Of a stretch of DNA of 64,000 nt, positions 24,233-57,398 are shown in pieces (within the stretch, counting starts at the first letter, position 1; every line of letters begins with the position of its first letter). The DNA is taken from the NCBI GenBank assembly GCA_000002435.2, contig CM018792.1, one strand, 5' to 3'. The position numbers and the translations under genes were made by a program. The stretch comes from Giardia intestinalis (Eukaryota). The notes beneath the pieces are model-generated. The model searched no databases and was not told the origin of the DNA. It was given only the letters and a program-made list of their open reading frames with translations.

Positions 24233-24991
24233 TTATTCTATATTGATAAACCGCGCCTCCTGCCCCTGCCGAAGTTTTATGTAAGGGGAGAACTGCTTGG
24301 GCTCTACGCGGATAGTCTTTGTGTCAATGGTTTCTGAAGAGGGCCCCCCAAGATGTGAAATTGTTAGTAAATTCAATTGTTTGTCTACTATTTCAACCTT
24401 AGTAAATCCAGGATTGACCTGGGCCGACCATGTTTTGGTTCTATTACCACTATCTGCGACGCCTATATAACACGGCTCTGCCACAGAGACAATGAAGAAT
24501 GCCCTGTTGTCTAAAACGCGCTGACCGAAGAAACTACCTTGTGTCTTAGCATGCAGGAGAGGCCCATTAATCTCCGCCTTGTCCGACGGAAACCACGAGT
24601 CGATGATGTGCATCTGGCAGCTCCAAACTGTTACTTGCTGGTACGAAAGGTTGATGTTGAATCTTCCAACGGTGGTCGGGGCAAAGCTGAATGCAAACCT
24701 TCCCAGGCGGCTGGTCTCCTTGAGCACCAGCTCCTCTGAATATTGCAGGGTATCAACGCTAGTGTTATGGTGGGTCATACTGAGCCGCAAAAGGTTTGGA
24801 AGCAGGAGCTTTGGGCAGAAATTAGACACTGGGAGGCCTTCTGTGCTGGGAATGTACACGTCTATAAAGCACGTGTACGATTTATTCAGCAACAAGACAC
24901 TGGGCTTGTTGATCCAGTGCACCTCTATATTGTCCAGGGCAGCAGTGGCATTACCATATGCTTCATAGAGAACATAGTTGCTGACACTCAT
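24233..24991 (-). CDS. Hypothetical protein (252 aa), no recognisable domain.
   Basis: ATG-initiated ORF (cat at 24989-24991). It is convergent with the E2 gene (48-bp gap) and divergent from the next gene (70-bp AT-rich gap). Confidence 0.6.
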   Translation of the reverse strand: MSVSNYVLYEAYGNATAALDNIEVHWINKPSVLLLNKSYTCFIDVYIPSTEGLPVSNFCPKLLLPNLLRLSMTHHNTSVDTLQYSEELVLKETSRLGRFAFSFAPTTVGRFNINLSYQQVTVWSCQMHIIDSWFPSDKAEINGPLLHAKTQGSFFGQRVLDNRAFFIVSVAEPCYIGVADSGNRTKTWSAQVNPGFTKVEIVDKQLNLLTISHLGGPSSETIDTKTIRVEPKQFSPYIKLRQGQEARFINIE

Positions 24992-25061: not shown

Positions 25062-28000
25062 ATGGATCCACAAAGGGCAGACCCGAAAAGTGTCAAATTG
25101 GACAGGGTCAAGCTAGTTGAGGCCGTAGTTGCGTATAGACGTTGGTTCGTGGATGCGCGTGGCAAGCCCAACCCGTCGTTCACTAAGGCACACAGTAACT
25201 TTGATATACTTTACGAGCAAATATCTGCCATTGTTGCTAAGACAGAGGCAAAGAACATGAGCTACGGCGAGACAGTTGAAAACTTTCTTGTCCTTTTGAG
25301 CTCAAATCTTTTTACTTATGCAAACAAGTTCTTCTTCACCGAAGGAGGTGGGCACAACTTCTTTGCGTCTACAGAGCACACAGCGATTGCAAAACAGATC
25401 TGGTGGGTTATCAAAGAGATACACATCTATCTCATCGACGGCGCTCTGCACCCCGTGTTAGGCGCTGGGGAGGAGTCCATCCAGGTAGGCTCAACAACCA
25501 TAACATCCACTATTACTGTGAGCGACCACCGTGCAGTGCGGATTCCTAACGGTGCTAAGTCCAAATACTACGAAGAGATACAGGCCATAAATGTCTTCAT
25601 TGATATGTTTGCGCGAAACGCAAATGCTCTACACCTTAGTAAGACAGACATGATGCAGCTCTGCCGAACGGCCTTCAGTATATGCATTGATACACCAGCG
25701 TTGTCTCTGGAGCTGCCATCATCCATTAGTTCGATGCTCATTGACTTGTCGTGTGGTGAGATAGATGCCATAGAGCTTCTCAATGCTATCTTTGACCGAT
25801 TCAAGGAATATGACATTGAGATCTCGCGTGTCTTCACCATGCTGCTCCTCTTTGTGAAGAACCAGATCAATCTCTGTTTCTTTGACGAGGAGTACGATAT
25901 GCGAGTGTGCACTTCATCAGAGAGCTCCGAGTCTAGCTACAAGCGCGGGCTTTTAAAGATGCTGAAGCGCATTCACCCTTTAGTTATTAATCTAAGATCT
26001 GCATACCCTCCGAAGTATATTGACTCGGAACTTATAGACGTCATTCTCCGCACATTCTTGGTGCACCTAATATCAATCAGTATAACTGACTCAACGCTTT
26101 ACATATACTTAAATACCTTGGCCCATAGCATAAGGTATTGCCGCAATAGCTATAGCTCCGCCGCAAATCAAATTCTTGTTTATCTTATTGTTGGATGTGA
26201 AAAGTCAAAGCTTACGAGCCCCGTTTCCAAGCGTCCCTCGTTGGCAGAAGTAACAAGCCGGATGGATCAACTGACCTCCAGTCTTAAGAAGAATGCGCCG
26301 CGCACTAGTGTAAGCTCAGCCACTCAGTCCATTGATGTGTCTCTTAAGCCCCCAGAGTTCTTAAAAATAGAGAGCTCCTTGGCCATGCAGGAAAAGCCTA
26401 CGCTGTCCTCTAAAAACGTCGCTGCATCTACACCTATTGAGTGGCATACGAAGTCAAACAGTCATTTCACCCGCTCGCCTCTGACAATGAATGATTCTCC
26501 CTCGGCTGTCTTAGAGGACAGCCTGAAAGTGATGGAGATGCCGTCCCCACTATTGTGCAACAATCAGGAGAAGGTAGCACCCATCACAACACAGCCGTCT
26601 GCCGTTCTCTCTAAGCAGATGTCTCCCCCCAGGGTTGTTCCTAAGCCCCCCTCTAAGAAGTACAACGTCAGTATCACAAATGACTCATACAATTACACTC
26701 CCATTTGGAAATATAGCGGATTTATTTTGCACCAGATGGATGCTCTAACCAATCGAGACCAGCCCTTGGATAACTTCATCTATGCAATAAGTAAGGTCGA
26801 CGGATCCCTTGTCCCTATTCTGAATTTCGTGGCTGAAACAGAGCATTATCATTACCAGATGTATTTACCAAACCTTCTTAAGTACATTATATCATTAGAT
26901 CATACGTATTTTTCGTGTCCTGGACACCTTAGTAACGCATACAAGCTGGTATCTGCGTGCATGCACATCTTACAATCTCTACTGGACATAGGATTTGCAA
27001 TGACGATAACTGAACTAGAACAGTCGGTGAAGACGATGATCTCACCCGTTAACAACGTCAGCTGCAATGTGTTACAAGGCTACTCTAGTCCTCTCCCCAT
27101 GCTCAGGAGGAACAATAGATGCTACATGAAAACGATCAGCGACGTCAAGGAGCTGACTGCCAATACGCCCGCAGACACAGCCAAGATGGACATTTACGTC
27201 GAGATAGGGAGAAAATCTATATCAAACACCATCAAGCGGAGTCATCTTTCTGTAACGTTCCCACCAGATATGAGCACACACGTTGCAGGGCTCTTCTCTT
27301 CAGACAGGACACTTAAATCTGCCAGCAGTACGACTCTTTCGGGACTCTGCACAGGGTACAACTCCCCCAAAATAAGCTCGCCAATTCCTCAGCAAGCAAG
27401 AGAGCGGAACCCCATGCTGTTCGCGCAAGAACAGACCCACTCATTCATACTGGATGGAACGGGGACCTTCAAAACAGATGACCTCCCGAGCTCCGTCATC
27501 AATAGCAAAGAGTACCATTTCCAATTTGTGTACATGCATAGTCCTCTGCTATATTTTGCACTGGAGGCATATAGCCATCTCGTAAGAATATCAAATTATA
27601 TCCTCTCCTTCTCTACAGACTCCCTTGAGGAAACGCTTATAAGTAGAGATGCTCGTAACAAGAAGACCTCAGAAATCCTCTTTTGGATACCTCTGCAATA
27701 TATAGAGGATGTGGATCCGTGGCCCAAGTACGGTGCTAAGCTTCCTCTGTCGCTCTCCCTGTTCCGGCTCAGATCTTTCGTTATCAATTTCCGTACAAAG
27801 CAGGTGAACATTGAGCAGACCCTCGACAAAAAGAAGAAGACCAAGAAGCGTAAGATGGACCTGCTCTCCCGAGCTCTACCTGGCAACAGGTTCACCCAAA
27901 GTGCCATCGAACGTAGCCTGAATAACAGTGCCATCGAACAGATGCAGCACTCTAACATCAGTATCGATGATATGATCAGCGGACTGGGCGACGAAGATCT

Positions 28001-28481
28001 TCTGGAAAAGATTCCTTTCTTTGGTGGAAAGGCATCCTCCCAGCCAGATGTCCTGGGGTCCCTATTGAGCATGATTCGGATTGGAACAGGGGTCCTAGAA
28101 AACCTTGTGCTTCTCGATTCCACATATGCAGATTTCAGATATAACATGACCATGGGCGACCTTGCCCTGGAAAATTGGCCATTTCCAATAGGAAAGATTA
28201 GCTGTCACTTTTCACTACACACAGATGGGCAAACCTTGGAAGTTGACCATCCAGTATACATAAATGCGTCCCATACGTGGGATTATTTGTATGGATTGAC
28301 AAGAACCATTGTTCTACGTATGGACAGAGACATTGTATTCAAGCGTACACTGAACTTTGGCAATTTTGTCCTCCTCTCACAGACAAAAGGCGACGAAGCT
28401 GCCCTTCAGGAGGCGCTAGAGCAGATAACGGAGCGGCACTCCAGGATTCTCTGCTATCTCCTAGGTCGGAAGGTACAATAG
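25062..28481 (+). CDS. Hypothetical protein (1139 aa), unknown function.
   Basis: ATG at 25062 preceded by tttttatttcaaaaatagctgaacaggta. Long uninterrupted ORF. Confidence 0.7.
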   Translation: MDPQRADPKSVKLDRVKLVEAVVAYRRWFVDARGKPNPSFTKAHSNFDILYEQISAIVAKTEAKNMSYGETVENFLVLLSSNLFTYANKFFFTEGGGHNFFASTEHTAIAKQIWWVIKEIHIYLIDGALHPVLGAGEESIQVGSTTITSTITVSDHRAVRIPNGAKSKYYEEIQAINVFIDMFARNANALHLSKTDMMQLCRTAFSICIDTPALSLELPSSISSMLIDLSCGEIDAIELLNAIFDRFKEYDIEISRVFTMLLLFVKNQINLCFFDEEYDMRVCTSSESSESSYKRGLLKMLKRIHPLVINLRSAYPPKYIDSELIDVILRTFLVHLISISITDSTLYIYLNTLAHSIRYCRNSYSSAANQILVYLIVGCEKSKLTSPVSKRPSLAEVTSRMDQLTSSLKKNAPRTSVSSATQSIDVSLKPPEFLKIESSLAMQEKPTLSSKNVAASTPIEWHTKSNSHFTRSPLTMNDSPSAVLEDSLKVMEMPSPLLCNNQEKVAPITTQPSAVLSKQMSPPRVVPKPPSKKYNVSITNDSYNYTPIWKYSGFILHQMDALTNRDQPLDNFIYAISKVDGSLVPILNFVAETEHYHYQMYLPNLLKYIISLDHTYFSCPGHLSNAYKLVSACMHILQSLLDIGFAMTITELEQSVKTMISPVNNVSCNVLQGYSSPLPMLRRNNRCYMKTISDVKELTANTPADTAKMDIYVEIGRKSISNTIKRSHLSVTFPPDMSTHVAGLFSSDRTLKSASSTTLSGLCTGYNSPKISSPIPQQARERNPMLFAQEQTHSFILDGTGTFKTDDLPSSVINSKEYHFQFVYMHSPLLYFALEAYSHLVRISNYILSFSTDSLEETLISRDARNKKTSEILFWIPLQYIEDVDPWPKYGAKLPLSLSLFRLRSFVINFRTKQVNIEQTLDKKKKTKKRKMDLLSRALPGNRFTQSAIERSLNNSAIEQMQHSNISIDDMISGLGDEDLLEKIPFFGGKASSQPDVLGSLLSMIRIGTGVLENLVLLDSTYADFRYNMTMGDLALENWPFPIGKISCHFSLHTDGQTLEVDHPVYINASHTWDYLYGLTRTIVLRMDRDIVFKRTLNFGNFVLLSQTKGDEAALQEALEQITERHSRILCYLLGRKVQ

Positions 28482-31925: not shown

Positions 31926-33275
31926 CTACATCAATACTCGTGTTTTAAAGCGCGACGACCCCTTGGATGACTCCATCGGAACAGGACATTTTAGATCCAG
32001 CAAGAGCATACCATTGTATCCGGTCGGATCCCTGTCCCAGCGACCTCTTCCAGGTGTTTTCCCCAGTGCTACGAAGATGTAGAGCTTCATATGTTGGACT
32101 ACTAGTTTCAAATTATTGACGAACCCATCAACTGCGTAATCTGCCACCTTCTCTAAATTGGAGTCGACACACCTCCATAACGAAACAAGACCGTGACAGC
32201 CGGAGATAATAATATCGCCATTCGGAATGCAATCCAGGGCGGTCACCAATCTTCTACAGTAGTCTGTGGATGGTATAAATGTATGCCTTGCTGAATCACT
32301 CTCAAGGAACCGCAAGCAGTCGTGGGGGTGCACTTGCATGACTGGCTTACGCTTCTCTAAAGTGTGCACTAGTAGCCCAAGGGCACATCCTGCAATGAAA
32401 ACATCAGTTCTAATCCAACACACACACTCGAGTGAGACACCTGACGTAAAGATCAGTTGCGTCTGCTTGTTATAGTCGAAGAAACGCACTGACTTATCAA
32501 CAGAACAAGTAATAACTGCATTGTGCTCTGCTCCCATGTCTGCACACCCCGTGATTTGATCTTCGTGTCCCCGTAAGGTGAACATCTCACAATGATCGTC
32601 CAAGTTGAAGACCTTAAGAGTACTTTGCATACAGATAGTAAGTACGTGGCCAAAAATCCGCATTGATAACGCTACATTATCCAGAATGATGCTGAAGAGA
32701 GATTTTCCCGTTCTCCCGTTGCGCACATTGACTAGGCAATCCAACCCTGTTGAAGCCACATATGCCCCATCGGCACTGGCAGCCAACGCAGTAATGCCTC
32801 CAAAGTGTCCCTCGTGGTACGGATCCCGTATTCTTGAGGTTGAGTGTATGCTTGCGTAGGGGTGTCTGTTCAACCTGACCCCAATGATATCATAGCGAAA
32901 CGGCTGTTTGCGGCCATGGACCCGGATTTTTGGCCTCCCCCGTACAATGAATAGCTGCTTCAGAGGCTTTTCTTCCGCGGAGATGTCTTCGATATTAGAT
33001 GGCTGCAGAGACCATGCAGAAACTGTCCCGTCACCAGACCCAAGGTAAATAGTATCATCGCTATGTGCTACGCAAGTAAATTCCATCTTGTGCCCGCCTC
33101 TGAGCATCAGTCGATCCTCTTTCGTTCCTCTGAAATGCGACAATATCTCCCTTGTGGCCACCTTGGAAAGAGCCTGAACCTGCTCCCGAAGAATTGACGC
33201 AACATCCCCACCAGCCTTTTTGATGACCTCTAGATCCTGAAGGGCAGATTGGCGTCGTAGAGCATCAGCACTCAT
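31926..33275 (-). CDS. WD40-repeat protein (449 aa).
   Basis: WD-like segments are present (e.g. GHEDQITGCADMGAEHNAVITCSVDKSVRFFD and TIYLGSGDGTVSAWSL). The ATG is at 33273-33275, with an AT-rich 32-bp divergent spacer to the next gene. Confidence 0.7.
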   Translation of the reverse strand: MSADALRRQSALQDLEVIKKAGGDVASILREQVQALSKVATREILSHFRGTKEDRLMLRGGHKMEFTCVAHSDDTIYLGSGDGTVSAWSLQPSNIEDISAEEKPLKQLFIVRGRPKIRVHGRKQPFRYDIIGVRLNRHPYASIHSTSRIRDPYHEGHFGGITALAASADGAYVASTGLDCLVNVRNGRTGKSLFSIILDNVALSMRIFGHVLTICMQSTLKVFNLDDHCEMFTLRGHEDQITGCADMGAEHNAVITCSVDKSVRFFDYNKQTQLIFTSGVSLECVCWIRTDVFIAGCALGLLVHTLEKRKPVMQVHPHDCLRFLESDSARHTFIPSTDYCRRLVTALDCIPNGDIIISGCHGLVSLWRCVDSNLEKVADYAVDGFVNNLKLVVQHMKLYIFVALGKTPGRGRWDRDPTGYNGMLLLDLKCPVPMESSKGSSRFKTRVLM

Positions 33276-33307: not shown

Positions 33308-34417
33308 ATGTGTCAATCTGAATGTGACCACCTGGAGCTGACGGTCGTTGAGAGGCAGCGGATAAGAGAGATGCTTCATCGTCCCCCCGTTTTACTCGTG
33401 ATAGGAATGGCTGGAGCAGGTAAGACGACCTTTATCCAGCGCTTGGCTGCTGAGCTCAACCAGCATCAGGCCGCGTATGCGTTAAAGCCACGAATACGGC
33501 AAGATATTGTTAGTAAGGTGCCTTATATCGTTAACCTGGATCCTGCTGTCTTGGACACTCCGTACATCCCCTCGGTCGACATCCGAGACACGTTTAACAT
33601 CGGAGACCTCATGAAGAAGCATCACTGGGGTCCCAACGGAGCCATCATGGCCACCCTTAACCTTTTCGCAACCAAGATCGATGAGCTGGACAACTTGATG
33701 CGTAAGAAGGCAGAGCGGACCTCTTGCTACGTCGTCGACACGCCTGGGCAGATAGAGGTATTTACTTGGAGCTCGTCAGGGGAGATAGTCTCTAAGTTCT
33801 TCGGCTCTGCATACCCCACCATTCTGCTCTATATCGTGGATAGCGAGCGTTGCCTTAATCCCATAACATTTGTAGCCTCTATGCTGTACTGCTGCAGCAT
33901 TATGGAGCGCCTTGAGCTCCCTGTAATCATAGTCTTTAACAAGAGCGATCTTATCGCTCCGTCTTTGAGTGTAGAGCCAGATACATTCAATAGGTGGGCA
34001 CCATGGGTCTATATGCGGAATAACGTTGCTCTCTCTGAGGCGTTTAGTGACTTCCAAGAGCGGAACGTTAATAGTATTGCTTATTCAGATATCTTCTACG
34101 AATCTCTGAGCACCATTCTGGAAGAGTTTTATAATGTAATAGATTACGTTAATGTAAGTAGCTACACAGGATTGGGATTTGAGGGGTTGCTGGACAAGAT
34201 TCGGAGAGTCAGTGCACAGTACATTGAGGAGTACCCGACCCGGTTGGATGAACATCGACGAGCTGTAGAACAAGAGAAGCAGCAAAAGGAACGCGAGAAA
34301 GAAGATCCCTACCAGAGTCTATTTGCAGATATGTCATTGCTGCCAACTCGCTATGTCTGTGGAGATGACGGGGTGGAGGTTCTAGAGGACTCGGCAAACC
34401 TGGATGGCGTTGACTAA
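33308..34417 (+). CDS. GPN-loop GTPase (XAB1/GPN1-like). Motifs present: P-loop GMAGAGKTT, GPN motif GPNGAI, and switch region VVDTPGQIEVF.
   Basis: Motifs read directly from the translation. The ORF-track start at 33290 is TTG, and the first ATG is at 33308. Confidence 0.88.
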   Translation: MCQSECDHLELTVVERQRIREMLHRPPVLLVIGMAGAGKTTFIQRLAAELNQHQAAYALKPRIRQDIVSKVPYIVNLDPAVLDTPYIPSVDIRDTFNIGDLMKKHHWGPNGAIMATLNLFATKIDELDNLMRKKAERTSCYVVDTPGQIEVFTWSSSGEIVSKFFGSAYPTILLYIVDSERCLNPITFVASMLYCCSIMERLELPVIIVFNKSDLIAPSLSVEPDTFNRWAPWVYMRNNVALSEAFSDFQERNVNSIAYSDIFYESLSTILEEFYNVIDYVNVSSYTGLGFEGLLDKIRRVSAQYIEEYPTRLDEHRRAVEQEKQQKEREKEDPYQSLFADMSLLPTRYVCGDDGVEVLEDSANLDGVD

Positions 34418-43216: not shown

Positions 43217-45253
43217 TCACAGAAGATCCGGCTCCTCTAGAAGGAACTCGTTGTGGCTCTCTGACCCGGAATTTATGCTGCGTAATTTGCTAACTCGGAC
43301 CCCCCGCTTCTTCGCAAGCTTGACGAGGAACGGAGTAGCCACGATGAAACCGACGATGATGAGGCCCAAGATAACAATCGTAGAGATGAGTCCTGCACCC
43401 CTGCTGGAGAAGTTAGAGTCCAGCTTACCGCAGTAGAGACCCATGACTGAGCTGATGGCGAAAACCTGGCCAGACGTGCACCGATCGCAAGAGACCAGCT
43501 TCTTGCTGTTTGCCATATAGGACGCACATTCGCTCGGACACGTTAGACACGTATCCCCTTCAGCGAAATAGTATCCCTGCACACACACGCCAGACTCACA
43601 AGTAGTGTCTGTGCACTCTCCCTTGCAGCCTTCCAAGCACGGGGAGCACCGATCTCCATCAACTGAAATGCCATAGCCGGCTAGGCACTCGCTGCATGCA
43701 GAGCCGTCATATGTATAGACCTTGCAATTCTCTACTTGTCCTTTCGCACACTTCTGATCATCAGGTGATATGTAAAATCCTAGTTTGCAAGTGCCGCAAT
43801 ACTTTGCTGTTTCTGCGCACAGCTCACAGTTGGGATCCTCACACTTTTCCAACGTATTCTTGTAGCTATCATACCGATAGCCATTGAATCCTAGTATGCA
43901 GTTCGAAATCTCCGGTCCCTTGCACAACTGACAGTTATCCACACACTTCTTGCACGCACCGTCAGCTACGTAAAAGCCGCCCCGACACGTGCTGCAGCCT
44001 TTGGTTGGATCTGTGGTATTATCCGCGTGGAGACAGTTCTCTATCACCAAGCCCACTTTAACGCATGTGCCATTCTGCAGGACAAAGCCATCATCGCAAT
44101 TGGTGCAGTTTGTCGCAGTGTTCTCACAAGCAAGGCAGTTGTCGTCGCACCGGACACAGAGGTTGTCGTACAAGTAGTAGCCAGGCAAGCATTCAGTGCA
44201 GCGGAAGCGGTCGCTGCATCCTATACAGTTCATGATGGCCCCGTAGCAGGGGACGCAAAAGCCGTTTTCTAAAAACTCGTTACTCTTACAACTTTTGGTC
44301 GGTAGATCAGAGCACCAAATGCCATATATCTTTGGTCCTACCGTGAGTTGGGACGAGTCCGTACACCGGGTACAAACAGGAATGCTGTGTGCCTCGTCGT
44401 AGTAGCAGTCGGCACAATTAGTTGGACACTTGGCACACACCTTTGCGTACGAATGGTAATAGTAACCTTGTGCGCAGCCAGTGGAGAGACATTTGCCAGG
44501 AAACTGGCGCTCATCATCGGCGCAGATAGCGCAGCCTTGCTGACACGCCTGGCAGGTACTGTCAGAAGTGAGGGCATAGCCGGGCATGCAGAAAGTGCAC
44601 TTGCTGGAATCGCACGTGCTGCAATTGCCAGTACAACTTACACATGTTGCTGATTGTGACGTTGTTGATGGCGTAGAAAGCCTATAACCTGGCTTGCAGA
44701 CAGTGCATGCTCCATCATCTGCGCAAGTGTCACAGTTAGTACCGGTACAGGCAGCTGGACTCTTCGTCGAGGGGTTAACATAGTACCCTGAGGCGGCCCT
44801 CGTGCACTCAGTGGCGCTCTTGCAGGATAGACAGTTATCAGCACACTTTGTGCAGGGGGTTGATCCCGCGCCCGAGTGGAAGTACCCCTCTGCGCAGGTC
44901 ATGCACTTTCCTGTGTCATGGACGCACTTGCTACACCCTGTATATAAGTCCTTGGGCTCCTTGCATGTCCCGTCCTGTGCTCTGCAGTGGGCCTCGCTGC
45001 ACGCCGTGCACTTCCCCGGGCCGGTGCAGCGCTCACAGGTGGGATCGCACGGCTTGCAGTACCCTCCCTCGAGATACGCCCCGGAAGCGCACCTCGTGCA
45101 CGCGCCTGCCCCGGTGCACTCCAGGCACCACTTTATCGCCGCAGCGCACTCAACACACATGCTCCCGGTCAGGTAGTGGTTTTTGGGGCAGCTCATCTTC
45201 CCTCCACGCGAAGGCGCGGTGGCCAGAGCGACGAGCACCACCAACGCATGCAT
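43217..45253 (-). CDS. High-cysteine membrane protein (HCMP/VSP-like). It has a signal peptide MHALVVLVALATA, dozens of CxxC/CxC motifs, GGYC, and one C-terminal TM segment with a 40-aa cytoplasmic tail. No CRGKA.
   Basis: The ORF-track start at 45256 is TTG. The ATG is at 45251-45253 with AT-rich upstream sequence (ttaaaaattaatacttttag on the coding strand). Cys-rich repeats and the TM segment GLIIVGFIVATPFLV read from the translation. Confidence 0.85.
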   Translation of the reverse strand: MHALVVLVALATAPSRGGKMSCPKNHYLTGSMCVECAAAIKWCLECTGAGACTRCASGAYLEGGYCKPCDPTCERCTGPGKCTACSEAHCRAQDGTCKEPKDLYTGCSKCVHDTGKCMTCAEGYFHSGAGSTPCTKCADNCLSCKSATECTRAASGYYVNPSTKSPAACTGTNCDTCADDGACTVCKPGYRLSTPSTTSQSATCVSCTGNCSTCDSSKCTFCMPGYALTSDSTCQACQQGCAICADDERQFPGKCLSTGCAQGYYYHSYAKVCAKCPTNCADCYYDEAHSIPVCTRCTDSSQLTVGPKIYGIWCSDLPTKSCKSNEFLENGFCVPCYGAIMNCIGCSDRFRCTECLPGYYLYDNLCVRCDDNCLACENTATNCTNCDDGFVLQNGTCVKVGLVIENCLHADNTTDPTKGCSTCRGGFYVADGACKKCVDNCQLCKGPEISNCILGFNGYRYDSYKNTLEKCEDPNCELCAETAKYCGTCKLGFYISPDDQKCAKGQVENCKVYTYDGSACSECLAGYGISVDGDRCSPCLEGCKGECTDTTCESGVCVQGYYFAEGDTCLTCPSECASYMANSKKLVSCDRCTSGQVFAISSVMGLYCGKLDSNFSSRGAGLISTIVILGLIIVGFIVATPFLVKLAKKRGVRVSKLRSINSGSESHNEFLLEEPDLL

Positions 45254-45857
45254 CAACAGCTGTCTAAAAGTATTAATTTTTAATCTTAGATCGTGTTATC
45301 AGTGGAAGTAGTGTTCGGATTATATGAAAGAGGCTCGCACATGACACAATCACCAAGGAGCAGATCACATCTCGGGTGGTCGGTGACCGAGGCCTGTGCG
45401 AACCCATTACAGGGGCGGCCCTATAACGGATGGGCTGCTCTCGGACAAGTCGCCCCATGCTTCTAGTGTCAGGCAGCACGCTACTGTACTTTGTAAGGTA
45501 GCCTTGGCCACGCACTGGCACACTAAGACACGATAATCGCCTTTGACATTAACTACTCGCCTAGAAGGCACGGGTTGGATGCCCTGTGCGATAAGCGTGT
45601 GCAGATCTGAGTCATGGCGCCACAAGTGACGAGCCGGCCACGGAGGGCCTTTGCGGACAGAACGAGTCTGACCTGTCCAGGGCTAACCCCACAGCTTCTG
45701 CTTGCCGAACAGGGGTATCTACTGACTAGATAGTAGGTCAGGTATGCCGGTCGCGGTGCTGGCTCTCAGTCTGCAACTGGGAGGCCAGCGGCCAACAGAG
45801 AGACAGTCCGTACCATTTTAAAGTAAAATCGTCGGGGAAAATCTGCTGCGGCGACAG

Positions 45858-46229
45858 ATGCCCTTCAGCCCCATTTCCGCGCCCGAGTACGAGACAAACG
45901 ACTGGTATGAGCCGACCGCCTCTGCGCTGAAGAAGATCAACGAGGCCGGGGAGCTGGAGCTCATCACGTTCCACGGGCCGTGGTGCAAGGACTGCCAGTA
46001 CAGCATCCCCGTCTTCAACAGGATCATGACGTACGTGACGAACGACAAGATCAAGGTCACCGTCGCCACCGTCGACAAGGAGACCCGCACGGACAGCGCC
46101 GGCCTTTGCGAGAAGTACGGCGTCAAGAAGGTCCCGTCCTGGGTCGTCCTCCGCGGGGGGAAGGAGATCGGCCGGATCGTCGAGAACTTCACGGTCTCCT
46201 TCGACGAGGACGTGGCCGCCATGCTCTAG
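45858..46229 (+). CDS. Thioredoxin-fold protein with an atypical WCKDC active site (123 aa).
   Basis: ITFHGPWCKDCQ...YGVKKVPSWVVLRGGKEIGRIV matches the thioredoxin signature (WCxxC ... cis-Pro ... G-rich). The gene is GC-rich. Confidence 0.75.
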   Translation: MPFSPISAPEYETNDWYEPTASALKKINEAGELELITFHGPWCKDCQYSIPVFNRIMTYVTNDKIKVTVATVDKETRTDSAGLCEKYGVKKVPSWVVLRGGKEIGRIVENFTVSFDEDVAAML

Positions 46230-46270
46230 GCCTTCCACCAGGAGTGAATTCTTTTGGCGCTTGTACGCTC

Positions 46271-46615
46271 ATGGAGAGTCCTTGCGGTTCGGGGGCGCGG
46301 CGGCTGGACGTGCTTGCGTTCATGCCAGACGAGCGCACGCAGAGGCTCCTCGTGGCCCAGAGGCAGCAGGAGTTCTCGGCGGCCGTTGTAGCACATCAGC
46401 CGCGGATCGCCGAGGTGCGCGTCCAGATGCACAACCTGCGGGACAGAGAGGGCTACGCCGTAAGGTATGGGGTCACGGCGGTCCCCACTTGGGTCTTTCT
46501 GCGCGATGGACAAGAGCTCGGGAGAATTGTTTGTGAGCCCCGAGGCTCGTTTGCAGAAGAGATAGGAAGAATCCTGGCCGCATCCACCCAGGAGCAAGAC
46601 AGAGAGAACAGCTAG
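46271..46615 (+). CDS. Thioredoxin-like paralogue lacking the CxxC active site (114 aa). Tandem duplicate of the preceding gene.
   Basis: YGVTAVPTWVFLRDGQELGRIV parallels YGVKKVPSWVVLRGGKEIGRIV of the upstream gene. LAFMPDERTQ replaces HGPWCKDCQ. The ATG at 46271 is the first Met in a frame that is open from 45980. Confidence 0.6.
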   Translation: MESPCGSGARRLDVLAFMPDERTQRLLVAQRQQEFSAAVVAHQPRIAEVRVQMHNLRDREGYAVRYGVTAVPTWVFLRDGQELGRIVCEPRGSFAEEIGRILAASTQEQDRENS

Positions 46616-46648
46616 AGGGACCCGTGTCGGCCGCTCGTCAAAAAACAA

Positions 46649-49291
46649 ATGGCGTCTCTATGCTGCGTCGCATGCGCCAACCTTGTTCGCCCAGGAGCCC
46701 ATAGGATCCTGTGTCCGCTGTGTAAACTTGAATTGGAAACCCACGCACACAAACGCCAGGAATTAAAATGTCAGTCGTGCATCCTAACAGAGCACTTCGC
46801 AGACGACAAGCATAGCGCGGCCCACAAGAGCCTCATCTTAAAGGCGTACGTCTCAATGGAGCAAGCCCGGACCAAGGCGGAGGCTAGCCTGTACCTTGCA
46901 GAGAGCAAGAAGACGAGCATCGAGGAGAAGATCGATCGCAACGAGCTTGACAGGTTTGGCAGAGTGGCCACGACGATAGAACAGGCGCTCGAAGTCCAGA
47001 TCAGCAAGCTCGAAAAGATCACCGAGGAGAACTTCCTGGCGTCCGAGCTGTGGGTGCGGAACATGAAGGCCCGCCTGGCCTCCGTCTACCAGGGATGCAT
47101 AGCAAGCAATCAGGCAACGGTCGACTTCATTGCCCAGAGGGCTGGAAACCTGGTCTTCATGTCGACTGCGGCTGAGCTTCTCGCGTCCATGGAGGATCTC
47201 GCCACCAGACACATGCACCAGCTTGCCAGCTCCTCCACTGATCGCTCCGCACCAGCTGCCCATGCTCCCACTGGCCCTCTTATCTCGCTCATCCGCCAGA
47301 ATGTCATGGATACGCTCTCGGCGTCTTTACCGCTGTTCAAGTCTCACCACAACATCAAGGGCATCCTAGACTCCGTCGCCCTAGCAAAGAATATATACGT
47401 GGGCCACGCAGACCTATTCAAAATCCACATTCTCAAGACTGGTCTGTACGTCTTGCCTGCCGCATTGGTACTTCCCCCCAGAACAACCCTGGGCGGGGCT
47501 TCCAGCAGGGGCGGGACAGACGTCGCAGAGCAGAAGGCGCAGTGCAGGTTTGAGTCCCGCGTCACCCAGTCCCTTACCGCTAACAGGAAGCGTCGCTCTG
47601 TTGTGTACGGCACCGTCATACTCACAGACAATAGCACGATCTTCAACCTTCACATAATAGGGAGAGTGTACGTCATCGGAAGCAACGCGAACATCATCAA
47701 CTGCACGATCGAGTCCACGCCCGCCTACTCTTCAGAGTCCTTCACAGACCGGTACACGGGGCTACCCGGGTGTCCCATAGCGTCAAGGGACCGCTCCATG
47801 GCGTCGTCTGTCCCCCGGCTCCAGAAGCTGCTGAGGTCTTCGTCTCCCAACAACCTCTCGCTGGCAGCCATCTCGCAGGCTCTAGAAAGAGTGGGGGTGA
47901 CTCTAACTGCGGATTCGCTGGCGCACTTGGAGCGTGATCTTGCTACCATTAACCCGTGTCTCGTCGTGACCAACAGGTCTACGAGTACGCTACTGATTAA
48001 GTCCAGGATTAACTCGAATAGTTTGGCGAGCCTTCCATTCAGTCTGTCGCACAAGCTTCCCGAGAGCGAAAGCAGCCTGTATGTTGGGCCAAGGTGCCCC
48101 GTTCTTGTATCCTCGGCGTCCCAGCTGTACATTCATGGCTCCTCTGTCTTCTGCACACAAATCAACCCCCTCGCGATGACCACGAGCTTTCGAACCGTGG
48201 CGTTATCCCCCATCTTAGAACTCGACACGCAAAGAAGCTTGATGAACAGCGCTATCAGTCGCACACAGGGCTTTGGCGGACAAGGCAGCAGACATCCCAG
48301 GGAGTCCCGCAGCCTAGAGGCCGCCGAGGAGCCAGCCAAGAACCTTCCCTTCATGCTCACGCCAGACAGGTTTCTCAGGGATAGAGAGATGATTGTGAAG
48401 GGGTCCCTCATTGTCGTCAAGGAGGGCTCCCATCTAGCAATGAGTGATACTCACCTGTTCAACTCCTTTGTGGGGGTGTACACTTCCGATGGCTCCGTCC
48501 ACGCCAACACGTGCTTCATCAATAACTGCTGCGTGGGGGCGATTGTGGCGAACGACGCATACGATGCGCGGTTTGTCTACACTGTGTTTAGCGAAAATGG
48601 CATTGGTGTCATGATGCACAGGCTCAGGAACACATCAGCCCTCTACTTGTCGCGCTACGAGATGAGCTCCGTCTGCGGGCTTGTCATATCCAACACGGCC
48701 ATAGACACGAACATCAACTACAAGTACCGGGTGTCGGAGCAGAGAGCAGCCCCTGCTCCGGAAGCCCCTAGCCCAGCAGAGCAGGAGGAGGACAGCATCA
48801 TTGGGGGATCTCTAGTCTTCGACACAGTGCCCTCATCTGTGGTGCAGTCCCAATCAGGGGAGGCCACCGGAAAGCCCATGTACGGTACCCTGTCTCTTCG
48901 GACGTCCCCCGTTCTAACAAAGTCCACTCACCTCACGAGCGCAACGAAGCTGCCGGAGCACCATTGCATCCTCGTGAGCAAATGCGACTACCAAGCCTCG
49001 AACGTGTCCTCCCTTGCCATTGTCGAGGAGCATGCAGGCCACCACTCCATCAACACTGCGAGCTGCATACTGCTGCACAGGAACAGAATCGAAGTGACTC
49101 AGAAGCGAGCTCCTAGGAGATCCGTCATTCTTCAGGGGGAAAACGTTTCACAGTGGTTCACTAGCATTCCCGCGACAAACTGGATTATCCCCTCGGCAGA
49201 CCCCGGGGAGTACATAGAGATAATCCCGAGAGGGACCGACCTGGCGCAGATTCTGTCAACAAATCTAGTCAGCAATACGGCGACAATCTAG
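46649..49291 (+). CDS. Hypothetical protein (880 aa) with an N-terminal Cys/His-rich zinc-finger-like motif (CCVAC...CPLC...H.H...CQSC), then a coiled-coil, then a long Ser/Thr-rich region.
   Basis: ATG at 46649 (caaaaaacaaATGgcg). Long ORF. Confidence 0.65.
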   Translation: MASLCCVACANLVRPGAHRILCPLCKLELETHAHKRQELKCQSCILTEHFADDKHSAAHKSLILKAYVSMEQARTKAEASLYLAESKKTSIEEKIDRNELDRFGRVATTIEQALEVQISKLEKITEENFLASELWVRNMKARLASVYQGCIASNQATVDFIAQRAGNLVFMSTAAELLASMEDLATRHMHQLASSSTDRSAPAAHAPTGPLISLIRQNVMDTLSASLPLFKSHHNIKGILDSVALAKNIYVGHADLFKIHILKTGLYVLPAALVLPPRTTLGGASSRGGTDVAEQKAQCRFESRVTQSLTANRKRRSVVYGTVILTDNSTIFNLHIIGRVYVIGSNANIINCTIESTPAYSSESFTDRYTGLPGCPIASRDRSMASSVPRLQKLLRSSSPNNLSLAAISQALERVGVTLTADSLAHLERDLATINPCLVVTNRSTSTLLIKSRINSNSLASLPFSLSHKLPESESSLYVGPRCPVLVSSASQLYIHGSSVFCTQINPLAMTTSFRTVALSPILELDTQRSLMNSAISRTQGFGGQGSRHPRESRSLEAAEEPAKNLPFMLTPDRFLRDREMIVKGSLIVVKEGSHLAMSDTHLFNSFVGVYTSDGSVHANTCFINNCCVGAIVANDAYDARFVYTVFSENGIGVMMHRLRNTSALYLSRYEMSSVCGLVISNTAIDTNINYKYRVSEQRAAPAPEAPSPAEQEEDSIIGGSLVFDTVPSSVVQSQSGEATGKPMYGTLSLRTSPVLTKSTHLTSATKLPEHHCILVSKCDYQASNVSSLAIVEEHAGHHSINTASCILLHRNRIEVTQKRAPRRSVILQGENVSQWFTSIPATNWIIPSADPGEYIEIIPRGTDLAQILSTNLVSNTATI

Positions 49292-54200: not shown

Positions 54201-57200
54201 ATGGCGCAAGAGCTCATCTCGGATGGCTACCGAGACGCGGTTTTCGTCGACCGGGGCTCCGCGGGGGCGCTGTTCCGCGCAGTGCGGGTACAGGACGGGG
54301 TCGTCGTCGCGGTGCGGGCCCTCGACCCGGAGCGGATCGGGGTTGCGCGCTGCGAGGAGCTCGCCCGAGAGCACACCGCGGCCGCAGCCCTCCCCCACCC
54401 CAGGCTCCTCGCCTGCGGGCCTGCGGTCTCGGAGCCTGACGCGGTCCTCCTTGAGACCGAGTGGTGCCCCGACGGGTCGCTCGCAGGGCTCCTCCGGCGG
54501 CAGCGGCGGGCAGGCCCCTTCTCTGAGGACCGCATCTGGGAGCTCGCGGCCCAGCTCGCAGAGGCGTTGGCGTTCCTCCACAGCCCGCTCAAGGCCCGGG
54601 GCGTCCTCGCCCACGGCCGCGTCTCACCCTCCGCCGTCCTCCTCGCCGGCCCGCGCGCGAAGCTCGGGGACTGTCTCCGTGCCCCGTCTCCACCGGGCCC
54701 GTACGCGGCACCAGAGGTCGCTCGGGGCGGCCCCCCGACACCTGCAGCAGACGTCTGGGCCCTGGGGTGCGTCCTCGTCGAGCTCTGCACCCTTCGCGCG
54801 CCCTGCTGGGACCCCGCTGCGCTCGCCGCAGACCCTGTGCCCGCTCTCGAGCGCTGCCCTGACACCCTCCGCGCCGCTGCCGCCGCGTGCCTCTGCGTCG
54901 ACCCCGCCCGCCGGATCTCCGCCGCGACCTTCGTGACCTTCCCGCCCGCCCTCTGGGCCCTCCACCGCGTCGAGCAGGCCGCACCCTCTGCGGTCCCTCG
55001 CGTTCAGTTATCATCCGCATTACTGAGATCCTCTGGAATTGCTCAAGGGTTTATGTCTCACCTCGGACAACAAGAAAACGTATTTTCTGCAGTTGCACAA
55101 AATGACCCCGAGATGCTCAAGTCGGCAATCCAGTCGCTCGGTGACACAGCTCCGCTAGCACAGCTACTAATGGAAGCGTGTGATAAAAAGGCGTACAAGG
55201 TAATGCCCCATCTTTGCAGACTGGTCGCTGCAACAAAGACTCCTATTACGTTGTCGTGGTGGAAGGGAAATCAGGTCACGAGAAAAACACTGCTTATGCT
55301 TGCTGTTGAGACACAGGCCATTGAAATGATTGAAAGAAACATGGATAGTCTATGTGCAATGTATGAGGATTGTACTGCGCTTATGATTGCGGCCAAAGAG
55401 GGAAAGTATCGGTGTTTGATGCATCTCCTTTGTGAGCTGGGTATTTCATCGTCTACGGGAAAGAGTGCCTTGATGTATGCAGCTGAGTATGGATTCTCTG
55501 ATTGTGTATCTCTCCTTCTGCCGGAAGTCGGAAAGGAAGATGACCATGGTTTAACGGCACATGCTTATGCGACTAAGAACGGACACGCAGGATGCATAGC
55601 TATTCTGTCTCAATACGAGTCAGAAACTGCGCACTCTAAAACTGACCTATGCAAACTTTCAGCGATTAGGCAGAGTGAAGATGGTAGCGAGCCAAGTGCT
55701 CCTGAACTTCCTGTGTTGGATGCCTCTAGATCATCTAGGTGTACCCAGTCAAAAAGCAGAATTCATAAGCCGGAACCCATGTTAGTGGAACCAGGCCCTG
55801 TCAATCAGCTCTTACTTAGCAAAACCACTGCCTCTACTGGACGTTTCATAGCTTCGACCTCTTTGAGCCCGGATGACCCCATCACAACGATACTATCTCC
55901 GATGAAGTCTCCAGACTCTAAGCAGCCACGACTAGTTAAAAGTGATACAATCAACGAACTACATGCGCTTGCTCGCGAGTCTCAAGATGAAGTTGTAAAG
56001 CCACTTTTGGCAACTCGCTCTGTAAGCCAGGCTAATCGTCAACCTCACCCGAAGACATCTTCTGATTACAAGAAGACATCTAAGCCCGGCAGTAGATCGC
56101 ACAGCAAAGAGCGAGACACTCTTGAAAATGCGATTCTACGCAACAATCCATCTGCTGTCGTCCTTCACCTTCATGATTTCGCCGCAAACCCACAGCCATA
56201 TGTGGACTTGGTATTCACAGAGAAAAAGTTCAAAGTCTTGCCAACTCTCTGCCGCTATCTTGCAAAAAAACACCTCAAGGCAAAAATACGCACCAGGGTT
56301 GCAACGCCCGTCGAAGAGTTAACATCTCTAATGCGAGCGGTGATAAATTGCGACCACCAGGGCGTGAAGGAGCATATAAGGGAGGCTGGTAATGAGTACG
56401 TGGGATGGCTAAGCTATACAGACACAACGGGCAAGGGATACATTCTGAGTAATTGCACAGCACTCATGATTGCAGCGGCAAGAGGAGACGCCGAGTGTAC
56501 AAAGCACCTCTTATGCGAAATGGGTGTATATTTAAACAGTAAGTGCACTTCTCTGACATATGCCATTCTCGGTGGGCACCATGAATGTGTCAGACTCCTG
56601 CTTCTGGAGTCTGACATCAGTGGCTGCACAATGCTTATGCGGTGCTGCTTCTTTAATAACCATAAGGAAATCCCTAATTATCTCACTGAAGCCAAGGCAG
56701 CTATAGGCCCCGGCCGCACAGCTCTTATGATTGCAGCGCAACTTGGAAACAAAGAAAGTGTAGAAGCTCTGGTTGACTACGAGGGCGGTCTGCAGGACAA
56801 AGATGGCATTACGGCTCTGTATCTGGCATCCAGTAACAATCAGCTGGATTGCATCAAGCTTCTTCTGGAAAAAGAAAAGCGGATCAAGACTAATGTCGGC
56901 TGGACAGCACTAATGGCAGCTGCGCAGAAGGGCCATGCAGATAGTGTGCAGCTCTTGTTGGAGGCAGAGAGTGGATACCAGAAAAGTGATGGCTGGACTG
57001 CCTTGATGCTGGCAGCGCAGGCTGGGCATGCGGATTGTGCATCCTTGCTAGCTTCCAAAGAGGCATGCATGACAAAGCCGGATGGGTGGACTGCCCTAAT
57101 GATCGCTGCTCAAGAAGGTCACCATCGGGTTGTCAAAGTCCTGATGAAGAGCGAAGCAGGACGGCAACAGAAGACAGGAATATCAGCCCTTATGTTGGCT

Positions 57201-57398
57201 GCACAGAGCGGGCACGATAGATGCGTCTTGCTCCTACGAGAGCTTGAGGCTCAGCTCGTGGACAAACGCGGATTGACTGCCCTAGATTATGCTTCCCAAC
57301 TAAAGGAAGATAACATCGATCGTGAACAGCAGGAAAAGCACGCTCTTTGTGTTTCATATTTACAAGCCGGCGGTTCTGGTAAGGACAAGACTAATTAG
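54201..57398 (+). CDS. NEK-like pseudokinase (very GC-rich N-terminal about 270 aa) fused to about 15 ankyrin repeats (1065 aa), of the 'protein 21.1'/NEK-ankyrin type.
   Basis: LETEWCPDGSLAGLL (hinge), YAAPEV, and DVWALGCVLVELCT (NEK subdomain IX) are retained, but HRD is replaced by AHGRVSPSAVLL and DFG by LGDC. Repeated TALMxAA.G...CV..LL modules run from about 55300 onward. The ATG lies 3 bp after the PanK stop. Confidence 0.82.
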   Translation: MAQELISDGYRDAVFVDRGSAGALFRAVRVQDGVVVAVRALDPERIGVARCEELAREHTAAAALPHPRLLACGPAVSEPDAVLLETEWCPDGSLAGLLRRQRRAGPFSEDRIWELAAQLAEALAFLHSPLKARGVLAHGRVSPSAVLLAGPRAKLGDCLRAPSPPGPYAAPEVARGGPPTPAADVWALGCVLVELCTLRAPCWDPAALAADPVPALERCPDTLRAAAAACLCVDPARRISAATFVTFPPALWALHRVEQAAPSAVPRVQLSSALLRSSGIAQGFMSHLGQQENVFSAVAQNDPEMLKSAIQSLGDTAPLAQLLMEACDKKAYKVMPHLCRLVAATKTPITLSWWKGNQVTRKTLLMLAVETQAIEMIERNMDSLCAMYEDCTALMIAAKEGKYRCLMHLLCELGISSSTGKSALMYAAEYGFSDCVSLLLPEVGKEDDHGLTAHAYATKNGHAGCIAILSQYESETAHSKTDLCKLSAIRQSEDGSEPSAPELPVLDASRSSRCTQSKSRIHKPEPMLVEPGPVNQLLLSKTTASTGRFIASTSLSPDDPITTILSPMKSPDSKQPRLVKSDTINELHALARESQDEVVKPLLATRSVSQANRQPHPKTSSDYKKTSKPGSRSHSKERDTLENAILRNNPSAVVLHLHDFAANPQPYVDLVFTEKKFKVLPTLCRYLAKKHLKAKIRTRVATPVEELTSLMRAVINCDHQGVKEHIREAGNEYVGWLSYTDTTGKGYILSNCTALMIAAARGDAECTKHLLCEMGVYLNSKCTSLTYAILGGHHECVRLLLLESDISGCTMLMRCCFFNNHKEIPNYLTEAKAAIGPGRTALMIAAQLGNKESVEALVDYEGGLQDKDGITALYLASSNNQLDCIKLLLEKEKRIKTNVGWTALMAAAQKGHADSVQLLLEAESGYQKSDGWTALMLAAQAGHADCASLLASKEACMTKPDGWTALMIAAQEGHHRVVKVLMKSEAGRQQKTGISALMLAAQSGHDRCVLLLRELEAQLVDKRGLTALDYASQLKEDNIDREQQEKHALCVSYLQAGGSGKDKTN

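Follow-up and report, generated by a model that had tools for sequence, protein, structure and literature searches.

Why would Giardia intestinalis keep, directly behind a thioredoxin gene, a second gene of the same family that lacks the catalytic cysteines? The question is raised by a gene pair in a window of 64,000 nucleotides (nt), the whole stretch of DNA that was analysed, which an exact-sequence look-up and the coordinates in a secretome proteomics supplement place on chromosome 4 of G. intestinalis WB (ATCC 50803). The two genes, here called T1 and T2, are co-oriented on the plus strand, 41 nt apart and in different frames according to the list of open reading frames (ORFs). T1 (45858–46229, +; 123 amino acids, aa) was identified by exact-sequence look-up as GL50803_104250 (XP_001709555.1, KAE8303657.1, A8B4C4), annotated as "Thioredoxin". 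T2 (46271–46615, +; 114 aa) was identified in the same way as GL50803_60606 (XP_037901938.1, KAE8303658.1, A0A644F4V1), which is a "hypothetical protein GL50803_0060606" in NCBI and a "Thioredoxin" by its UniRef name. The secretome supplement lists GL50803_104250 at GLCHR04:684965-685336(+) with 123 aa, and its peptides INEAGELELITFHGPWCKDCQYSIPVFNR and IVENFTVSFDEDVAAML match T1 exactly. A preliminary description, made from the letters of the window, had reported both ORFs and quoted peptides from them, and these can be read directly in the sequence at the positions given above. Of the readings considered below, the best is that T2 is a redox-dead pseudoenzyme with a thioredoxin fold, specific to its lineage.

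Paralogy of T1 and T2 and the loss of cysteines

The relationship between the two proteins, proposed earlier from their similar C-terminal blocks, is borne out by two comparisons. BLASTP aligned T1 with T2 at 36% identity over 64 aa (E = 3e-12), and a profile–profile comparison of T1 orthologs with T2 orthologs returned 97.7% probability (E = 1.6e-12) over the C-terminal 50 columns. T2 stays below the gathering score of the Pfam Thioredoxin family PF00085 (13.2 bits, E = 0.09), and a search with PF14595 gave no match for it. With only 13 bits against the generic family, T2 is therefore specifically T1-like and recognisable through T1, and the comparisons indicate that it is a diverged paralog from T1's own subfamily.

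The active site of T1, W42-C43-K44-D45-C46, is read directly from the codons at 45981–45995 (+). The multiple alignment of T1 and T2 is gapless and of equal length from F38 of T1 and F17 of T2 to the YGV block, and it places the ERTQR of T2 on the WCKDC of T1, so that Arg22 and Arg25 of T2 occupy the positions of Cys43 and Cys46. The former active-site loop of T2, F17-M-P-D-E-R-T-Q-R25, is located by the same alignment at 46319–46345 (+). T1 has a third cysteine outside the CxxC motif, Cys84 in GLCEKY (46107–46109, +), where the T2 proteins carry Ala, Thr or Val. The T2 orthologs share no conserved cysteine column, and those of strain P15 and of one lineage recovered from public read sets (L008) are entirely free of cysteine. 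The first ~30 residues of T1, which include the DWYEP motif and the predicted N-terminal helix, are missing from T2 as well. At the sequence level, a role of T2 in thiol–disulfide exchange is thus excluded, in agreement with the earlier suggestion that the protein without a CxxC should be redox-inactive. The cis-proline loop is retained; V71-P72-T73-W74 (46481–46492, +) is invariant in the T2 orthologs and aligns with VPSW of T1.

The fold that the preliminary description ascribed to both proteins is upheld, for T1 by its match to PF00085 and for T2 by structure prediction. An AlphaFold model of T2, built from five T2 orthologs alone, had a mean predicted local distance difference test (pLDDT) score of 73.9 and the topology beta-alpha-beta-alpha-beta-beta-alpha. 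In a Foldseek search with this model, all 50 of the PDB matches listed were thioredoxins or thioredoxin-derived or thioredoxin-fold structures, with a probability of 1.00 and template modelling (TM) scores of 0.5–0.6. A T1 model made in the same way (pLDDT 78) shares the core of T2, adds an N-terminal helix and likewise matches thioredoxins. T2 is therefore predicted to keep a minimal thioredoxin fold with its cis-proline loop.

Conservation, separation and expression of the two genes

The window was compared with a second assemblage A-type copy (L010–L012), with the loci of assemblage E strain P15 (L013) and assemblage B (L007), and with two more lineages from public read sets (L001–L004, L008–L009), giving six loci from five lineages. 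An intact T2 ORF of 113–114 aa lies 24–41 nt 3' of T1, between the same flanking genes, in all six loci, which confirms that the pair is conserved in tandem across the G. intestinalis complex. The ratio of non-synonymous to synonymous substitution rates (dN/dS, Nei–Gojobori) for T2 is 0.08–0.19 between distant assemblages, where dS is saturated at ~1–2.4, and 0.4 for the close A–E pair; the corresponding values for T1 are 0.02–0.10 and 0.18. Non-synonymous evolution is 2–4 times faster in T2 than in T1. In the core of T2, the annotated frame is the only one of six without a stop in any of the five lineages, and it has the lowest ratio of non-synonymous to synonymous differences per site (pN/pS, 0.25; Fisher p <= 1e-10 for distant pairs). 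Indels in T2 come in multiples of three. An intact ORF together with frame-specific purifying selection makes a pseudogene or a chance ORF very unlikely, and the pattern of substitutions indicates that purifying selection has preserved T2 throughout the G. intestinalis species complex. A by-product of selection on the antisense ORF at 46226–46648 (−) was considered as another source of this conservation and rejected, as all three minus-strand frames hold stops in other lineages.

The stretch before the invariant Met18 of T2, which includes the first strand (LDVLxF), shows mostly synonymous changes and an indel of 6 nt, and the longer of the possible T2 starts is for this reason taken as the coding one. 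Public annotations of T2 differ in this respect. The assemblage B (GS) record GL50581_660 starts T2 at the internal Met18 and has 91 aa, which would drop the first beta-strand, and the P15 assembly (assemblage E) leaves the intact T2 ORF at L013:4412-4756 unannotated.

The consensus of the polyadenylation signal in Giardia is AGTRAAY. A motif of this form occurs 11–14 nt past the T1 stop codon in all six loci, and in the window the 41-nt spacer between the genes (46230–46270, +) carries AGTGAAT 13 nt past the stop, at 46242–46248, which we take to be the poly(A) signal of T1. T1 transcripts should therefore end before T2, and the arrangement points to two separate transcription units. The preliminary description had itself raised the possibility of a single gene split by an assembly frameshift; a single gene could also be joined by programmed read-through or frameshifting. 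Some features of the locus would fit one gene, since the T2 frame is open upstream into T1 in the window (ORF 45980–46615) and, in P15 and L001, T2 shares the frame of T1 across a spacer with no further stop. However, a complete C-terminal half of the thioredoxin is present in each of the two ORFs, which in six independent loci are separated by a stop codon, a poly(A)-type motif and a second ATG. The frame of T2 relative to T1 also varies by lineage (2, 0, 0, 1 and 0), an in-frame TGA lies in the spacer of assemblage B, and mass spectrometry has detected IVENFTVSFDEDVAAML, a peptide from the C-terminus of T1. This excludes an assembly frameshift as well as a fusion by conserved recoding, and a one-gene structure is the least credible of all the explanations considered here, with a negligible chance of being correct.

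The 3' side of T2 differs from that of T1. There is no canonical AGTRAAY at 46616–46648, between T2 and the ATG of the next gene, 33 nt away in the window, and the conserved start region CAAAAAACAAATG of this gene directly follows T2 here and likewise in the orthologous loci. The 3' end of T2 probably overlaps the downstream gene.

The G+C content of the 45–47 kb stretch is 58–59%, compared with ~46–48% for most of the window, so the description of the pair as GC-rich was accurate. The G+C content at third codon positions (GC3) is 0.96 in T1 and 0.73 in T2, and 0.45–0.62 in most other long ORFs of the window. High expression had been predicted for both genes from GC3, and this proved right for T1 but not for T2. 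T1 is among the more abundant proteins in WB and GS secretome preparations, its RNA value is ~10 in a published transcriptome table (Krakovka et al., 2022), and another study gives 175–574 units (Ansell et al., 2017); this high expression fits the extreme codon bias of the gene. In the former table, the RNA of T2 is ~4–5.6 for both copies of the gene, like that of the downstream gene GL50803_114014 (Krakovka et al., 2022). If the scale is log2, as the methods of that paper suggest, T2 RNA lies ~5 log2 units, or ~40-fold, below that of T1, and no protein value is reported for T2 in the tables checked. Peptides YGVTAVPTWVFLR and ILAASTQEQDR are candidates for detecting T2 specifically.

The subfamily of T1 and the origin of T2

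T1 passes PF00085 with 40.7 bits (gathering cut-off 23.5) and, more narrowly, PF14595 (Thioredoxin_9) with 26.9 bits (cut-off 25). Neither protein reaches the cut-off of 96.8 bits of TIGR01068, the NCBIfam thioredoxin equivalog, for which T1 scores 35.7 and T2 17.8 bits. The WCKDC motif is invariant across the T1 orthologs, that of G. muris included. When 1.84 billion representative proteins were searched with a profile built from the T1 orthologs, there were 2751 matches at E <= 0.001, and the active-site motifs were counted in the best 150 of these. Among these 150, all but two of ~93 domains from the closest relatives of single-domain size carry W-C-x-D-[C/S/T/V], including WCSDS (15), WCGDS (13), WCPDC (11), WCPDS (11), WCKDS (6), WCGDC (5) and WCKDC (2), and the long multi-domain matches are protein-disulfide-isomerase-like proteins with WCGHC. 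Named relatives include proteins of Spironucleus salmonicida (WCGDC) and Hexamita inflata (WCPDC) and a bacterial "thioredoxin family protein"; several such relatives, from Spironucleus, Hexamita and bacteria, likewise score above the PF14595 threshold. T1 is thus placed by its sequence in a W-C-x-D-[C/S/T] subfamily that is common to diplomonads and many bacteria. Because the closest relatives carry this motif almost universally, WCKDC is ordinary for its own subfamily, and the earlier view of it as an atypical active site holds against the classic WCGPC but not within the subfamily of T1, where W-C-x-D-[C/S/T] is the norm.

The closest solved structures to T1 by sequence are domains of protein disulfide isomerase (PDI), and no solved structure of a W-C-x-D-[C/S/T] subfamily member was found among the PDB sequence matches. 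Neither a characterised member nor a close solved structure turned up for the subfamily, and it appears to be uncharacterised. The subfamily is large; its bacterial members are mostly monothiol (WCxDS/T) proteins of ~170 aa with N-terminal extensions resembling export signals. The W-C-x-D proteins of diplomonads may derive from a bacterial transfer. Cys84 of T1 is invariant in all Giardia T1 orthologs and is also present in the relatives P0075 and P0092, and it may serve as a thiol with a resolving or a regulatory function. P0075 is the closest T1 relative outside G. intestinalis and G. muris and also has WCKDC; it comes from Logan contigs of SRR149443xx with 68% GC, and its locus has no adjoining T2-like gene and has different neighbours, including an Upf1-like helicase. 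T1 itself is a candidate for an abundant dithiol oxidoreductase of cytosolic type.

Strain WB has a second copy of the T1–T2 pair, GL50803_3910 (A8B5E9) and GL50803_33978, on a different chromosome record of 4.0 Mb, the window holding the chromosome 4 copy. This second copy, together with parts of both flanking genes, is ~99% identical to 45700–46760 of the window (L010, L011, L012), and GL50803_3910 differs from T1 of the window at three residues. In contig L011, the T1 coding sequence equals that of the window and T2 differs at 10 sites, six of them non-synonymous, a pattern that could come from gene conversion or from a chimeric short-read assembly. It is GL50803_3910 that the literature calls the putative Giardia thioredoxin. 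Its HA-tagged form is cytosolic, and papers that cite Leitsch (2011) relate that no thioredoxin reductase activity could be measured in extracts of Giardia with the recombinant protein. According to later papers, the Giardia reductase still lacks an identified functional thioredoxin. For T2, no main-text mention of its identifiers or accessions was found in the literature searched, in which it occurs only in omics tables. Both genes are already in public annotation and a paralog of T1 has been studied; the status of T2 as a conserved redox-dead paralog appears to be undescribed so far.

A profile search with T2 orthologs found relatives in four clusters, all from G. intestinalis, and outside this species only non-significant generic thioredoxins, in a search whose word-based index could miss very diverged relatives. 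G. muris has a T1 ortholog that is 69% identical, in a syntenic locus (CM016925.1) with orthologs of the window genes 24233–24991, 25062–28481, 31926–33275 and 33308–34417 on one side and an ortholog of 46649–49291 on the other. T2 was not found by tblastn in this locus, where only 38 nt separate the T1 stop codon from the next gene. G. muris T1 stands at the junction of two gene blocks that are ~21 kb apart in the window of G. intestinalis, and the 880-aa gene is inverted, which points to local rearrangement around the thioredoxin locus. T2 would have been born by tandem duplication of a T1-like gene, and it may have been gained after the split from G. muris, or gained earlier and later lost in G. 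muris. The argument for tandem duplication comes from the adjacency of the genes, their shared length and the identical spacing of their elements rather than from phylogeny.

Possible roles of T2 and comparison with known systems

In thioredoxins, three loops form the substrate-binding groove: that of the active site, the cis-Pro loop and the one that follows the last strand. The most conserved segments of T2 are M18-P-D-E-R-T23, V71-P-T-W74, QPRIAEV-VQMHN-RD-EGY after strand 2, and V-x-E-P after the last strand, and F17, M18, P19, E21, R22 and T23 are invariant among the T2 orthologs. Because the MPDERT, VPTW and V-x-E-P loops are among the most conserved parts of the protein, T2 may still bind a partner on this face. 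It is proposed that T2 would hold a protein partner on the canonical substrate-binding face without exchanging electrons and would serve as a binder, a decoy or an adaptor; its partner could be T1, the reductase or a client of thioredoxin. The explanation that best joins the observations, held with moderate confidence, is that T2 is a selectively kept, cysteine-free paralog of the T1 subfamily that works as a low-abundance, non-redox binding protein. Several points weigh against it. Only five sequences stand behind the structural model of T2, and the argument from the binding groove combines an alignment with general knowledge of thioredoxin structure. T2 is 24–26% identical to all members of the subfamily, with G. 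intestinalis T1 only marginally the closest, and a neighbour-joining tree places it on a long branch and not as the sister of Giardia T1. The protein columns of the table mentioned above give "NA" for both copies of T2 (Krakovka et al., 2022), and T2 did not appear in the parts of the secretome and proteome supplements examined. In addition, the low T2 RNA may be partly read-through from the very abundant T1 transcript.

The latter observations would also suit T2 as a pseudogene in decay, or as a chance ORF that GC-rich sequence has kept open, with its RNA being T1 read-through; T2 has no Pfam match above threshold, is unannotated in P15 and truncated in the GS annotation, is missing from the proteomic tables checked, and has little RNA. 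Such an explanation is nevertheless highly improbable. Five lineages with saturated synonymous sites all retain the intact ORF, the pN/pS of 0.25 is confined to the annotated frame, which is the sole stop-free one, the indels preserve the frame in multiples of three, and the fold is predicted confidently from the orthologs of T2 alone. A more serious alternative is that T2 has been neofunctionalised away from thioredoxin clients, for instance to a structural or scaffold role in which the fold is only a stable framework. Thioredoxin-fold proteins that lack redox activity and have structural roles are known from other systems, and the faster non-synonymous evolution of T2 (2–4 times that of T1), the loss of the N-terminal segment and of all cysteines, and a changed charge (Arg-rich with 0–3 Lys and an isoelectric point (pI) of 5.9–8.4, against a pI of ~5 for T1) speak for such a change. 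However, the segments of T2 that are most conserved are the loops of the canonical substrate-binding face, and nothing points to any particular alternative role, so this explanation is considered possible but clearly the less likely one compared with a binding protein of the T1 subfamily.

The preliminary description had suggested that the active and the inactive protein form a regulatory or chaperone module. In its developed form, this idea makes T2 a dedicated subunit that binds T1, or the pair of T1 and the reductase, in a regulatory, adaptor or chaperone capacity. The strict tandem conservation in all G. intestinalis loci examined and the derivation of T2 from the T1 subfamily are in line with it, as are the changes of T1 and T2 RNA in the same direction in some metronidazole-resistant lines, and the statement in the literature that no functional thioredoxin has been found for the Giardia reductase. 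Weakly in favour is also a hexamitid-like scaffold from a metagenome in ENA (1660 bp; L017:406-1497), which joins a cysteine-less domain to two CxxC domains of the W-C-x-D subfamily, so that inactive and active domains can be physically linked. However, duplication in a compact genome would account for the adjacency just as well, G. muris has T1 without T2, the two genes appear to be separate transcription units, and T2 protein is unreported in the tables checked. The ~40-fold RNA imbalance argues against a stoichiometric partnership. The module as first proposed is unsupported by the present data, and a dedicated subunit is judged unlikely, more so than neofunctionalisation. More speculative still, T2 could be the missing accessory factor of a non-canonical Giardia thioredoxin system, a cysteine-less adaptor that docks on T1 or on thioredoxin reductase. 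The chances of this reading are slight. If true, the adaptor would enable, gate or redirect electron flow, and it would explain that a T1-type protein alone has not been shown to work with the reductase.

In hexamitid diplomonads, TAG encodes Gln, and the two genes called on the metagenome scaffold form one frame with a single TAG between them. With this codon read as Gln, the product has three tandem domains of the W-C-x-D subfamily, the first with the cysteine-less WNSDS, followed by WCADC and WCPDC. In the WNSDS domain, the redox site would have been lost independently, here within a fused protein.

Giardia promoters are short and AT-rich. Directly upstream of T1, at 45813–45857 (+), the AT-rich elements ccATTTTAAAgt and gAAAATc are conserved in the six loci from five lineages and form a putative promoter or initiator. 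The neighbouring gene on the other strand (43217–45256, −) encodes a membrane protein rich in cysteine, with a match to the Giardia VSP family. No tandem repeats were found within 40–58 kb of the window. Farther downstream, the gene at 54201–57398 (+) encodes a NEK-type kinase with ankyrin repeats, and the region encoding its N-terminal kinase domain has 68.6% GC, against ~46–48% for most of the window, and is rich in Ala, Pro and Arg. A single ORF of 6974 codons at 2782–23706 (−) takes up one third of the window.

The thioredoxin reductase of Giardia (GL50803_9827) is a drug activator and a proposed drug target. The subfamily placement of T1 and the presence of its cysteine-free neighbour offer two handles on the missing thioredoxin partner of this enzyme. 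T2 is, in addition, a clean lineage-specific example of a pseudoenzyme in a minimal eukaryote, and otherwise an ordinary outcome of gene duplication.

Compared with the classic thioredoxin, E. coli TrxA (WCGPC, TIGR01068), the pair has in common the overall fold, the CxxC at the N-terminus of a helix in T1, and the cis-proline loop. In contrast to TrxA, T1 has WCKDC, a distinct N-terminal segment with DWYEP and no first beta-strand in its model, and T2 is without any CxxC. The likeness to the Thioredoxin_9-like (PF14595) subfamily is closer. T1 shares with it the Asp-containing motif and a C-terminal GRIVE-x-P-x-x-S/T-x-E-x-D block, and T2 matches this subfamily far better than generic thioredoxin. 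However, most bacterial members are ~170 aa long with an N-terminal extension, many of them are monothiol (WCxDS/T), and the whole motif is replaced in T2. The b and b' domains of PDI, ERp29 and the thioredoxin-like domain of E. coli YbbN/CnoX are redox-inactive thioredoxin folds that act by protein binding. No specific homology of T2 to these proteins was found, and no dedicated test for it was made. Like them, T2 is a selectively kept thioredoxin fold without a functional CxxC, for which binding is here a proposal; unlike them, it is a free-standing protein of 114 aa, belongs to another subfamily and occurs only in the G. intestinalis complex.

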